Sequence record: PQ783785 | Origin: Escherichia phage PDP46 | Direction: 5' to 3' (one strand) | DNA: 56,522 bases | Shown here: one piece after another, positions 37,554-38,617 of the stretch | Position numbering within the stretch: the first letter of the stretch is position 1 | Layout of the letters: the number at the start of each line of letters is the position of its first letter | The notes under the pieces: model-generated | Told to the model about the DNA's origin: nothing | Database searches by the model: none | Seen by the model: only the letters and a program-made list of their open reading frames with translations | Position numbers and translations under genes: made by a program

Positions 37554-37766
37554 ATCTTCAACCGATACTTCAATCCACGATGCGGGAACCGGATATTCAG
37601 TCCGGTACATGAACAAGGATGTTCCTATCAACCCGTGTGGATCTGTTTTAATCCCTCGCATGTTCAACAATGGAAAAAACTGTTCGCGTGTTTGTGGCAA
37701 TCTTGCAAAGCGTCCTGTCGGGCGTTTAGCAGGATCCATAGGGTTGAATTCAACGATTGTGGACAT
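37533..37766 (-). CDS. Hypothetical protein
   Basis: 77-aa ORF, last gene of the long leftward operon. Confidence 0.4.
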   Translation of the reverse strand: MSTIVEFNPMDPAKRPTGRFARLPQTREQFFPLLNMRGIKTDPHGLIGTSLFMYRTEYPVPASWIEVSVEDLLKTVY

Positions 37767-38271
37767 AACAATAACTCCTGTACGCTTGTCGTTTTATTTT
37801 CTGATAGTCAGAAACTTTTACAGATCTCGTTTTACATTCACAGATACGATGTGGGTCGAAAACAAACATCACCTGTGAACGGTCATTTCCTCCTGCTGGT
37901 AACCCGGTGTCAGGGTCTACAAATGCTATACGGCCTTTAAACACCCATAGTTCCGAACAATATGTCAGTGCTTTGTGAAACCAGTCTGCAGACGTCATAG
38001 CGTTCACGAGTAATAACGAACCAGTTCCCTGATGAACAGTGGTTATTATTTTATTAACCCAGGGAGACGGATCGCTGTACGGTGGGTTACACCAGATGAA
38101 CCCACCACCATTACTTTGAACAATCGAATGCCAGTCTTTATTCAGACTATCAGTGATAAACAACGAACATTTATTGTTAGAACCATCGGTACACACATCA
38201 AGAACAAGTGGGAATTCACGAGAAACGTTATCAATAAAATCCCACGGTGTTTCCCAGTTGTCTTTAGCCAT
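37750..38271 (-). CDS. dam: DNA N6-adenine methyltransferase (Dam-like)
   Basis: ORF 37750..38388 trimmed to Met40 (MAKDNWETPWDF); catalytic NPPY motif in FIWCNPPYSD. Confidence 0.75.
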   Translation of the reverse strand: MAKDNWETPWDFIDNVSREFPLVLDVCTDGSNNKCSLFITDSLNKDWHSIVQSNGGGFIWCNPPYSDPSPWVNKIITTVHQGTGSLLLVNAMTSADWFHKALTYCSELWVFKGRIAFVDPDTGLPAGGNDRSQVMFVFDPHRICECKTRSVKVSDYQKIKRQAYRSYCYVHNR

Positions 38272-38617
38272 GTTCCGGTACGCTCTCCACGCTGTAATAA
38301 ACGGGGATACCCAGACGTTCAGCTTCTGCAATTTCCGCAATAGTCCCGGACGAACGACGATAATCAGGAAGCACCAGAACGGCATCACAACGACGCATAA
38401 CTTCTAATGTGCCTGACAGGTAGTATTCAGATTGTATATTGCGTAAACCGCCGTCAAAGTCCCACAATTCGGTGTTCTTGTGAGGGATAACCGGGAACCA
38501 CCCCGGACGTTGTAAAGCCAGTCGTTTACCTGCCTGTTCAGCGCGTGACACGTTACGGGATGTTTTAAGCGCACAGTCAGCACGATAAGGTCCGGCAATG
38601 TAACAGAGTTTAATCAT
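38264..38617 (-). CDS. Nucleoside 2-deoxyribosyltransferase-like (DUF4406-like) protein
   Basis: ORF trimmed to Met11 (MIKLCYIAGPYRA); IAGPY and a conserved Glu are reminiscent of the NDT fold. Confidence 0.4.
   Translation of the reverse strand: MIKLCYIAGPYRADCALKTSRNVSRAEQAGKRLALQRPGWFPVIPHKNTELWDFDGGLRNIQSEYYLSGTLEVMRRCDAVLVLPDYRRSSGTIAEIAEAERLGIPVYYSVESVPEHG

Follow-up and report, generated by a model that had tools for sequence, protein, structure and literature searches.

Small methyltransferases of the PF05869 "phage Dam" family are encoded by several groups of phages, among them the Stx phages (M.EcoVT2Dam), the Haemophilus phages HP1 and HP2, and the T1-like phages; they are orphan genes located in early or nin-like regions, beside NinX-type genes. 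M.EcoVT2Dam has been treated as a Dam homolog (PMC6602927). A second group of enzymes, formed by the 2'-deoxynucleoside 5'-phosphate N-hydrolase DNPH1 (Rcl) and the CMP N-glycosidases MilB and BcmB, combines an alpha/beta fold with the spacing S-x-G-x3-E-x3-A around a Glu nucleophile. The small NDT-like protein described below finds its best structural matches among the nucleoside 2-deoxyribosyltransferases (NDTs) of PF05014, a family with members from Lactobacillus and Bacillus psychrosaccharolyticus. A gene for such a protein followed by a methyltransferase gene is found in Salmonella phage 9NA (gp62-gp61) and in Sasha (gp59-gp58).

Here, we describe the corresponding locus of Escherichia phage PDP46 (PQ783785), the whole 56,522-nt stretch of which is referred to as the window. 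PDP46 shares 96.8% nucleotide identity with Sashavirus 536P12 and is, by sequence, a Sashavirus/Nonanavirus (9NA-like) coliphage. Counterparts of the NDT-like and methyltransferase genes, ~97% identical, are already annotated in AVIO78A, PJ16, and KarinMuster_Bas82 (Bas82), and the gene order and gene sizes in these three annotations match the PDP46 locus. The features of the locus are as follows.

39520..41376, minus strand: gene for the 618-aa DNA polymerase, lying upstream within this leftward operon (ORF list and orthologue annotation)
38944..39480, minus strand: gene for a 178-aa protein of phrog_19205 (E = 3e-108), between the DNA polymerase and NinX-like genes
38944-38951, minus strand: 8-nt junction ATGACTGA, same type as ATGGCTAA
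38610..38951, minus strand: NinX-like gene (113 aa; PF10765, E = 3.7e-6; phrog_444, E = 2e-28), directly upstream of the NDT-like gene
38610-38617, minus strand: 8-nt junction ATGATTAA, same type as ATGGCTAA
38264..38617, minus strand: NDT-like gene (117 aa; ATG at 38617, stop at 38264-38266)
38321..38353, minus strand: codons of the putative catalytic motif S89-x-G91-x3-E95-x3-A99 (E95 codon GAA at 38335..38333)
38264..38271, minus strand: 8-nt start/stop overlap ATGGCTAA of the NDT-like and methyltransferase genes (direct reading of the sequence)
37750..38271, minus strand: methyltransferase gene (173 aa; ATG at 38271, stop at 37750-37752)
38077..38088, minus strand: NPPY catalytic motif IV, methyltransferase residues 62-65 (motif scan and translation)
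37768..38282, minus strand: exchangeable methyltransferase cassette, without homology to Sasha, 9NA, and Carvaje (blastn)
37533..37766, minus strand: 77-aa gene (phrog_25980) closing the operon, with a 17-nt overlap with the methyltransferase 3' end

Direct reading of these coordinates confirmed an earlier description made from the letters alone (the sequence-only reading), in which both open reading frames lay on the minus strand of a leftward replication operon and overlapped by 8 bp. Starts that would lengthen the two frames (GTG at 38388 and TTG at 38647) are also found in the mechanical ORF list. We favor the ATG starts on the grounds that they agree with the lengths of 522 and 354 nt given for these genes in AVIO78A and Bas82 and with the N-termini of 55 aligned homologs. 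Three 8-nt overlaps follow one another in the operon (ATGACTGA, ATGATTAA, and ATGGCTAA). This is the standard junction of the operon; such a generic, threefold feature is no evidence of partnership between the two genes joined by ATGGCTAA. A scan for promoters and terminators from the polymerase gene to the pair found no internal minus-strand promoter exceeding the shuffle expectation. The 77-aa gene is kept in all the relatives compared. The 178-aa protein has no match in Pfam, NCBIfam, or PADLOC; the PADLOC scan likewise returned no match for the NDT-like, NinX, and 77-aa proteins. In PJ16, a Macro-domain gene (PF01661, E = 9e-20) lies directly after the methylase, and BDX09P1 has a similar-sized insertion at that place.

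The 173-aa protein was described in the sequence-only reading as a Dam-like methyltransferase with an NPPY motif. Domain searches agree as to the enzyme class: a Pfam hmmscan gave PF05869 with an E value of 2e-30 and 106.1 bits (gathering threshold, 28.1), aligning residues 2-143 with model positions 8-149 of 169, and phrog_111 was matched at 6e-45. The Dam label holds for this small phage family and not for the E. coli Dam family (PF02086, MethyltransfD12), membership in which was rejected, as PF05869 and a spurious NOZZLE match were all that hmmscan gave at E <= 0.1. M.EcoGIX was also rejected as a relative, being an unrelated plasmid single-stranded DNA methylase. The protein resembles the orphan Dams of the Stx, HP1/HP2, and T1-like phages in family, size class, NPPY motif, and genomic setting; however, its identity to them is only 26 to 32% (~32% in the case of M.EcoVT2Dam), and the nearest proteins outside its clade, from Vibrio phages, reach 35 to 39%. 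Within the clade, it shares 97% identity with its counterparts in AVIO78A, Bas82, and PJ16. With 88 bits against TIGR01712 (phage_N6A_met), under the equivalog cutoff of 97.05, it is a diverged member of the family. The best PADLOC model was "orphan methyltransferase" (E = 5e-15), and Pfam, PHROG, and PADLOC scans of the two flanking genes (NDT-like and 77-aa phrog_25980) revealed no nuclease and no further methylase family. The enzyme is therefore an orphan, without an adjacent cognate restriction endonuclease. PDP46 has a second methylase, which is adjoined by a YAcAr SLOG gene.

For the 173-aa protein, we propose the function of an orphan DNA methyltransferase that is SAM dependent and acts on N6 of adenine, and we infer from the characterized family members that its target on phage DNA is most likely GATC. 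This specificity is not secure, given the 26 to 39% identity to PF05869 members outside its own clade and the score under the TIGR01712 cutoff. A literature search on PF05869 returned nothing on specificity, the EcoSal review of restriction-modification (RM) likewise does not include this family, and a sequence search of the PDB with the methylase did not find a solved relative. The window contains 193 GATC sites, with an observed/expected ratio of 0.81; hence, the site is neither avoided nor enriched in PDP46 DNA.

The methylase slot itself is variable among the 9NA-like phages. In blastn comparisons with Sasha, 9NA, and Carvaje, homology stops near position 38283 (38268 for Carvaje) and restarts at 37767/37768. 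On both sides of the gap, the 9NA and Sasha loci are equivalent to that of PDP46, with an orthologous NDT-like gene (88 to 89% amino acid identity) in the same operon position and the same 77-aa downstream gene, which shares 17 nt with the 3' end of the methylase gene, but their methylase is a 393-aa PF01555 (N6_N4_Mtase) enzyme that is not homologous to the PF05869 enzyme of PDP46. PF01555 enzymes of 259, 265, 363, 393, 443, or 483 aa, none of them homologous to the PF05869 enzyme, fill the slot in Carvaje, Sasha, 9NA, and IMG/VR relatives, and a PF05869 enzyme fills it in the E. coli phages and L012. These unrelated methylases have the C-terminal residues YVHNR (their last five codons) in common because the methylase 3' end overlaps the 77-aa gene. 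Judging from these alignments, the methylase is a swappable cassette exchanged at gene-boundary junctions, where recombination refills the slot with other methylase families, and the family found there tracks the host genus.

The actual family of the 117-aa protein is DUF7768/DUF4406/DUF1937, which includes the solved but uncharacterized structure 1T1J. The match to DUF7768 covers residues 3-108 (E = 5e-9; 36.8 bits; gathering threshold, 26), and phrog_355, named "nucleoside 2-deoxyribosyltransferase," was matched at 2e-25. The NDT/DUF4406-like N-terminus of the sequence-only reading stands as regards family and fold but not as regards position, since the DUF4406 match (E = 3.7e-7; 30.9 bits; threshold, 22) lies in the C-terminal half, at residues 61-108. 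PF05014 (Nuc_deoxyrib_tr) aligned with residues 6-108 at an E value of 0.0018 and 18.9 bits, under its gathering threshold of 28.8. AlphaFold2 (AF2) modeled the protein with a pLDDT of 96.6 and a pTM of 0.89, and the best PDB folds found by Foldseek were NDTs, 1t1j, DNPH1, and MilB/BcmB, with TM scores of 0.55 to 0.64 and a probability of 1.00 for 6evs (E = 5.6e-5), 2a0k (E = 9e-4), 8pqt, 1s2d, 8rpt, and 4jem (0.5 to 0.6 for DNPH1 and MilB/BcmB as a group); ThsB and YpsA were among the weak matches. The predicted fold is thus the Rossmann-like fold of NDTs and DNPH1. The 1t1j structure (TM, 0.60 to 0.64) carries the S-x-G-x3-E motif too. At the sequence level, a PDB search gave nothing significant, the best matches being 1t1j with the family profile (E = 0.079) and BcmB with the single sequence (E = 1.5).

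Across 55 homologs, G9, S89, G91, E95, and A99 are invariant, and Y6, R12, H46, and T70 are nearly so, with E72 two residues after the last of these. The dN/dS ratio of the gene against its Sasha, 9NA, and Carvaje orthologues is 0.06 to 0.09, indicative of strong purifying selection. An hhalign comparison paired S89-G91-E95-A99 with S98-G100-E104-A108 of human DNPH1 (in a numbering that fits the D80A and Y24F mutants named in the PDB), and since its probability was below 1%, it serves for residue correspondence only. BcmB has the same spacing in the segment SPGTHIEIGWA, in a phmmer alignment that is not significant (E = 1.5); hence, the likeness to DNPH1, MilB, and BcmB is one of fold and motif and not of significant sequence similarity. 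In the same low-probability hhalign comparison, Y6, R12, and H46 are the counterparts of a Tyr, an Arg, and a His of DNPH1, both proteins having an N-terminal Tyr, a G-x-x-R loop, and a His after strand 2. The DNPH1 residue aligned with R12 contacts the 5'-phosphate. In this low-confidence alignment, the residue of the phage protein opposite D80, the Asp with which DNPH1 binds the sugar 3'-OH, is T70. Besides, the phage protein stops at residue 117, just past the last strand, whereas NDT/DNPH1 chains have 137 to 174 aa, so that the ~40 C-terminal residues that complete the (neighboring subunit's) active site are absent. With Thr in place of Asp and this segment missing, substrate and chemistry may differ from those of NDTs and DNPH1.

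The conservation of the Glu motif (S89-G91-E95) together with Y6, R12, and H46 makes the cleavage of an N-glycosidic bond the most likely activity. The 117-aa protein would then represent the N-(deoxy)ribosyltransferase superfamily in minimal form, and we infer that its substrate is a (deoxy)nucleoside 5'-monophosphate, cleaved through a covalent ribosyl-Glu95 intermediate. During replication, such an enzyme would serve to adjust the nucleotide pool or to clean it. Direct neighbors of its homologs include genes for dNMP kinase and dATP/dGTP diphosphohydrolase. Among the matches to the fold in BFVD are two proteins, 216 and 462 aa long, whose annotation includes a dATP/dGTP diphosphohydrolase N-terminal domain; as both exceed the 117-aa query in length, we read them as fusions. 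The PJ16 annotators named their orthologue "2'-deoxynucleoside 5'-phosphate N-hydrolase." A literature search on DUF4406 yielded incidental mentions only and no functional work, in keeping with the earlier view of the protein as uncharacterized.

Our preferred explanation, to which we assign a probability of roughly 55%, is that the locus encodes a swappable orphan methylase and, independently of it, a probable nucleotide N-glycosidase, both with accessory functions. Both genes would be co-transcribed at the 3' end of the leftward early/replication operon and translationally linked as their neighbors are, without forming an obligate pair.

Regarding the methylase, its protective effect would reach only those restriction enzymes with sites overlapping its target. 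The majority of E. coli hosts are dam+ to begin with, the enzyme has diverged far from the characterized members, and GATC is neither avoided nor enriched, all of which speaks for a role other than anti-restriction. Though this is less likely than not, it could keep phage DNA fully methylated during rapid replication for the phage's own purposes (avoiding MutH/SeqA on hemimethylated GATC, or the control of packaging or expression) or have a non-GATC target. Against this possibility, the family and size of the slot methylase vary by host genus, which is what adaptation to the restriction repertoires of hosts should produce, and not what a fixed housekeeping role should. The sequence-only reading had referred to Dam as a known anti-restriction strategy, which is plausible here but narrow. 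Bas82, with a near-identical pair, is described as showing marked sensitivity to the RM systems used against it (PMC11990801); the same sensitivity counts in favor of the non-anti-restriction role.

For the second component of our preferred reading, the nucleotide N-glycosidase, two other functions were weighed. It seems unlikely that the protein is a true NDT swapping bases between deoxynucleosides for salvage, in spite of the phrog_355 and RefSeq/GenBank names and of top Foldseek matches that are bona fide NDTs (6evs and 2a0k). It scores under the PF05014 gathering threshold, it is much shorter (117 aa against 137 to 167 aa for the matched NDT chains) through the absence of the NDT C-terminal segment, and the GP motif of its N-terminal loop is followed by a conserved Arg, like the phosphate-binding loop of DNPH1 and unlike the corresponding loop known for NDTs. 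The BFVD proteins that join the fold to a dATP/dGTP diphosphohydrolase domain also point to nucleotides and not to nucleosides. Dedicated work on phage enzymes offers one example in favor, an NDT with dA-preferring transglycosylation (10.1101/2025.10.22.683976, a 2025 preprint). Two of three further NDT-family enzymes assayed there had no transglycosylation on dA, dG, or dZ donors, a result that weighs against our preferred N-glycosidase reading.

Rather improbable is a counter-defense enzyme acting on NAD+, ADP-ribose-derived or nucleotide signals (Thoeris-type or cyclic-nucleotide), with the operon end as an anti-defense islet. The fold is common to TIR/SLOG-type NAD+-processing domains and ThsB and YpsA do appear as weak Foldseek matches, but the top structural matches are NDTs, DNPH1, and MilB, not TIR or SLOG. 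The Macro-domain gene of PJ16, the insertion of BDX09P1, and the YAcAr SLOG gene next to the second PDP46 methylase would fit such a role, as would a 239-aa BFVD match annotated as DUF4326, a domain tied to NAD+-centered and RM systems by Iyer et al. (PMC7824862). However, the NDT-like protein has no PADLOC match, there are no Macro, NADAR, or Nudix domains among the listed neighbor families of ~70 homologs, and Bas82 is not unusually robust to the immunity systems tested (PMC11990801). In its most specific form, in which the DUF7768/DUF4406 enzyme, the swappable methylase, and (in sister phages) the Macro-domain protein make up a nucleotide/ADP-ribose-centered islet, the enzyme would cleave an immune signaling nucleotide, an NAD+-derived molecule, or a modified nucleotide; we regard this proposal as quite improbable.

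Equally doubtful is a functional pair in which the N-glycosidase services the methyltransferase, e.g., by destroying S-adenosylhomocysteine (SAH), the inhibitory product of methyltransferases, or by removing N6-methyl-dAMP or other modified nucleotides set free when methylated DNA is degraded. The two genes are translationally linked, in all the 9NA-like phages examined the methylase comes next after the NDT-like gene in spite of the change of family, and DNPH1 has been crystallized with an N6-substituted AMP (title of PDB 4kxm). Yet the 8-nt junction is generic in this operon, the same helper would be required by methylases of unrelated families, and R12 suggests, by alignment with DNPH1, a 5'-phosphate substrate and not the SAH thioether. 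Outside the 9NA group, we scanned with Pfam the same-strand genes at +/-1 and +/-2 of NDT-like genes in about 70 to 80 IMG/VR loci and found methylases in 10 of 125 neighbors at +/-1 and in 5 of 113 at +/-2 (Fisher P = 0.30), figures that derive from crude gene calling, include some near-duplicate loci, and were counted per Pfam family only. Methylase adjacency is thus at the local background, and coupling as a general rule was rejected. The "coupled" partner of the sequence-only reading is not supported, given the generic junction, the swappable methylase, and the lack of enrichment at +/-1, although a lineage-specific functional link may exist within the 9NA-like phages. The SAH-nucleosidase helper ranked low, its supporting context being absent.

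Both genes are real but ordinary: they belong to known families, and GenBank phages already include annotated copies that are nearly identical. Gene-boundary cassette exchange is seen here in a clean form, with unrelated methyltransferases sharing one slot and their last five codons, which helps in understanding how self-methylation is retuned when phages take up new hosts. DUF7768/DUF4406 is widespread in phages (319 confirmed IMG/VR loci in one scan) and retains an intact NDT/DNPH1-type catalytic motif, so a function established for the small, well-folded PDP46 protein would extend to the whole family. If the counter-defense islet were true, it would provide the first function for a large uncharacterized phage family.

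The region holding the NDT-like and Dam-like methylase genes was 96.8% identical to Sashavirus 536P12 and 96-97% identical to Escherichia phages AVIO78A, KarinMuster_Bas82 (Bas82) and PJ16, and its conserved parts were 84-92% identical to Salmonella phages Sasha, Sergei, Solent and 9NA; the window is thus a 9NA-like siphovirus of E. coli. Novelty is low, since AVIO78A, Bas82 and PJ16 already carry names for the upstream gene ('nucleoside 2-deoxyribosyltransferase' [NDT] or '2'-deoxynucleoside 5'-phosphate N-hydrolase' [DNPH1/Rcl]) and the downstream one ('DNA (N-6-adenine) methyltransferase'). 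We favor, with a probability of about 0.55, two independent accessory functions, an orphan methylase and a minimal NDT/DNPH1-type N-glycosidase. The ORFs and the junctions of their operon, read directly from the sequence, are as follows.

ATG 38617, stop 38264-38266, minus strand: NDT-like ORF, 117 aa
ATG 38271, stop 37750-37752, minus strand: methyltransferase ORF, 173 aa
38944-38951, minus strand: 8-nt junction of the 178-aa gene and NinX, CATCATGACTGA
38610-38617, minus strand: 8-nt junction of NinX and the NDT-like gene, ACCATGATTAA
38264-38271, minus strand: 8-nt junction of the NDT-like and methylase genes, AACATGGCTAA

Rereading the ORFs and the 8 nt that they have in common (ATGGCTAA) gave exactly the coordinates of the sequence-only reading. 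A mechanical ORF list offers longer versions starting at GTG 38388 and TTG 38647, but the ATG starts are favored because the orthologs annotated in AVIO78A and Bas82 measure 354 nt (NDT-like) and 522 nt (methylase) and the N termini of 55 aligned homologs agree. The overlap itself is not meaningful, since the operon has the same 8-nt junction type three times in succession. This leftward operon (about 44356 to 37533) encodes a 247-aa protein, a DUF2800/PD-(D/E)XK nuclease, an Enc34-type single-stranded DNA-binding protein, DNA polymerase, phrog_19205, NinX, the NDT-like protein, the methylase, and phrog_25980. The top minus-strand consensus promoter match (10/12) falls within the divergent region (44417..44389); the scan found no convincing promoter inside the operon, with match counts not above those of shuffles. 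The pair is flanked by the 178-aa phrog_19205 protein (38944-39480, minus) and the 77-aa phrog_25980 protein (37533-37766, minus), which had no match in Pfam, NCBIfam, or PADLOC and were found in all 9NA-like relatives whose annotation was inspected. An o-spanin ORF (37305..37553, plus), embedded in the i-spanin gene, converges with the last leftward gene (37766..37533, minus), and their 3' ends overlap by 21 nt (37533-37553), leaving no room for an intergenic terminator; Bas82, AVIO78A, and Sasha keep this arrangement.

In every 9NA-like phage examined, the gene directly 3' of the NDT-like gene encodes a DNA methylase, but these methylases are non-homologous. The window, Bas82, AVIO78A, PJ16, and one IMG/VR locus (L012) carry a PF05869 methylase (173-179 aa), while the slot holds a PF01555 N6_N4_Mtase of 393 aa in 9NA and Sasha, of 259 aa in Klebsiella phage Carvaje, and of 265, 363, 443, and 483 aa in IMG/VR relatives. 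By blastn, homology of the window to Sasha/9NA ends at 38283, which leaves 19 nt to the NDT-like stop codon and 12 nt to the methylase ATG, and restarts at 37767, one base ahead of the ATG of the 77-aa gene. The methylase 3' end overlaps that gene by 17 nt and, since this overlap is part of the conserved flank, the unrelated methylases share their last five residues, YVHNR. Among the records examined, methylase type tracks host genus, with PF05869 in E. coli phages and differing PF01555 versions in Salmonella and Klebsiella phages, a pattern that fits self-methylation adapting to host restriction repertoires but could also stem from local recombination pools.

PJ16 (L001, 3374-3814, minus; window equivalent, about 37767) has a 146-aa Macro-domain gene (PF01661, 9e-20) inserted after the methylase and ahead of the 77-aa gene, a possible candidate for ADP-ribose-directed counter-defense. 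BDX09P1 probably carries it too, judging by an insertion of similar size; it is absent from the window, 536P12, AVIO78A, and Bas82. Further cassette exchange is seen in the lysis module.

36271-36831, plus strand: endolysin, 186 aa, GH108 and PG_binding_3 by domain composition

The same site encodes an endolysin of 127-129 aa in PJ16 (annotated as L-alanyl-D-glutamate peptidase), 9NA, Bas82, AVIO78A, and Sasha and a 155-aa lysozyme in Carvaje.

The pairing was also sought with the family alignment in an IMG/VR pattern scan (319 loci confirmed, 80 fetched), in which a simple caller picked the closest ORFs on the same strand and these were scanned against Pfam. Outside the 9NA group, a DNA methylase lay just downstream of the NDT-like gene in 7/64 loci (four PF01555, two C5, one MT-A70) and just upstream in 3/61; the excess at +/-1 (10/125) over +/-2 (about 5/113) was not significant (Fisher p = 0.30). 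Other neighbors are typical of replication and nucleotide metabolism: dNMP kinase (three loci) and dATP/dGTP diphosphohydrolase (PF18909; two loci), both adjoining NDT-like homologs within loci L013-L083 of the scan, and RusA, SSB, ThyX, primase-polymerase, and family A polymerase. Methylases are thus common in the modules that hold NDT-like genes, with no sign of an obligate pair. Given the generic junction, the swappable methylase, and these counts, the special coupling proposed from the sequence is wrong or at least unsupported.

The family assignments of both proteins, in contrast, were right. The NDT-like protein matched DUF7768 (5e-9, residues 3-108) and DUF4406 (3.7e-7, residues 61-108) in Pfam and phrog_355 'nucleoside 2-deoxyribosyltransferase' (2e-25) in PHROGs; against the curated NDT family PF05014 it scored 18.9 bits, under the threshold of 28.8. 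Its very confident AF2 model (55 homologs; pLDDT 96.6, pTM 0.89) bore out the expected NDT fold, with Foldseek PDB matches at TM 0.55-0.64 to bona fide NDTs (6evs, 2a0k, 8pqt, 1s2d), uncharacterized 1t1j, DNPH1/Rcl, and the CMP N-glycosidases MilB and BcmB. Invariant in the family alignment are G9, N22, A26, P45, C77, D78, V80, S89, G91, E95, A99, and P105, and nearly so Y6, A8, P10, R12, H46, T70, E72, R76, and A79. The profile alignment was made to human DNPH1, whose nucleophile is E104. The spacing S89-x-G91-x3-E95-x3-A99 is exactly that of DNPH1 S98-G100-E104-A108 and aligns with BcmB SPGTHIEIGWA; E103 of MilB, the counterpart of E104, is the residue mutated in PDB 4ohb, according to its title. 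Y6, R12, and H46 align with DNPH1 Y24, R30, and H56, but T70 stands where DNPH1 has D80, and the protein lacks about 40 residues present at the C terminus of NDT and DNPH1. Pairwise and profile alignments to characterized enzymes are statistically weak taken alone. Strong purifying selection acts on the gene (dN/dS 0.094 versus Sasha, 0.094 versus 9NA, and 0.056 versus Carvaje; dS about 0.76-0.80).

From these sequence and model comparisons we conclude that the protein is a predicted catalytically active member of the N-(deoxy)ribosyltransferase superfamily, most likely an N-glycosidase on a 5'-phosphorylated (deoxy)nucleotide. Names do not predict activity in this superfamily, since one phage NDT (PF05014 type, dZ phages) showed dA-preferring transglycosylase activity whereas 2-3 others were inactive with dA, dG, and dZ donors (2025 preprint, 10.1101/2025.10.22.683976). 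Foldseek against viral models (BFVD) returned many phage proteins labeled NDT, DUF7768, DUF4406, or DUF1937, and some longer proteins, read as fusions, whose annotations add a dATP/dGTP diphosphohydrolase N-terminal domain (A0A6J5LQ71 and A0A6J5S4N9; 216 and 462 aa, apparently fused with PF18909), DUF4326 (in a protein of 239 aa), or a 'hydrolase' (in one of 264 aa). The diphosphohydrolase combinations and the nucleotide-metabolism neighbors fit a nucleotide substrate, and suggest that some phages follow a two-step route from dNTP through dNMP to free base, in which the diphosphohydrolase would yield dNMP and a DNPH1-type enzyme would then strip the base.

The methylase matched PF05869 'Dam' (2e-30, nearly the whole model) and phrog_111 (6e-45), its top PADLOC model was 'orphan methyltransferase', and NPPY occupies residues 62-65. 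It is a diverged member (88 bits; TIGR01712 equivalog cutoff, 97). An E. coli-type Dam identity was rejected; the Pfam scan gave no methylase family except PF05869. By tblastn against 50,697 phage records, five copies exceeded 95% identity and none other exceeded 40% (Vibrio phages, 35-39%; Stx-phage dam, 32%; HP2 dam, 31%; T1-like phages, 26-30%). A sequence search found no relative with a solved structure. The characterized members Stx-phage M.EcoVT2Dam, HP1 Dam, and T1 Dam methylate GATC. For this reason, and because M.EcoVT2Dam is handled as a Dam homolog (PMC6602927), GATC is probably the target here too. GATC is neither avoided nor enriched in the window (193 sites, observed/expected 0.81, mid-range among 4-nt palindromes). 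Across the whole window CTAG is strongly underrepresented (10 sites, 0.19), AGCT (0.59) and GGCC (0.60) are moderately low, CCGG is overrepresented (1.38), and no tRNA genes were found. Bas82, whose methylase is also 173 aa with a handful of residues different and whose NDT-like gene is the same, was markedly sensitive to the RM systems tested in the BASEL extension (PMC11990801). Any anti-restriction benefit is thus narrow, as would be expected of a single-site methylase.

Another methylase lies in the right part of the window.

50928-51608, plus strand: second methyltransferase gene, 226 aa, phrog_757 'DNA methyltransferase' (6e-79), 90% aa identity to 9NA gp78
51605-52000, plus strand: YAcAr SLOG-superfamily protein, 131 aa, PF10686 (1e-19), 4-nt overlap with the second methyltransferase

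The former had no Pfam match and, by eye, has C5-MTase-like motifs (LFDGSG, FPDCT, IENPVG); the latter had no tblastn match in the 9NA right arm. A methylase thus adjoins a Rossmannoid nucleotide-fold protein twice in this phage, which may be coincidence. Iyer et al. (PMC7824862) predicted NAD+ use by phage SLOG (YAcAr) domains and tied DUF4326 to NAD+-centered and RM systems, which would favor a counter-defense role for the NDT-like protein, although we regard this as unlikely. With two independent functions, an orphan N6-adenine methylase, probably GATC-specific, would occupy a recombination-refillable slot beside a conserved minimal NDT/DNPH1-type N-glycosidase of the DUF7768/DUF4406 family that would act on nucleotides.
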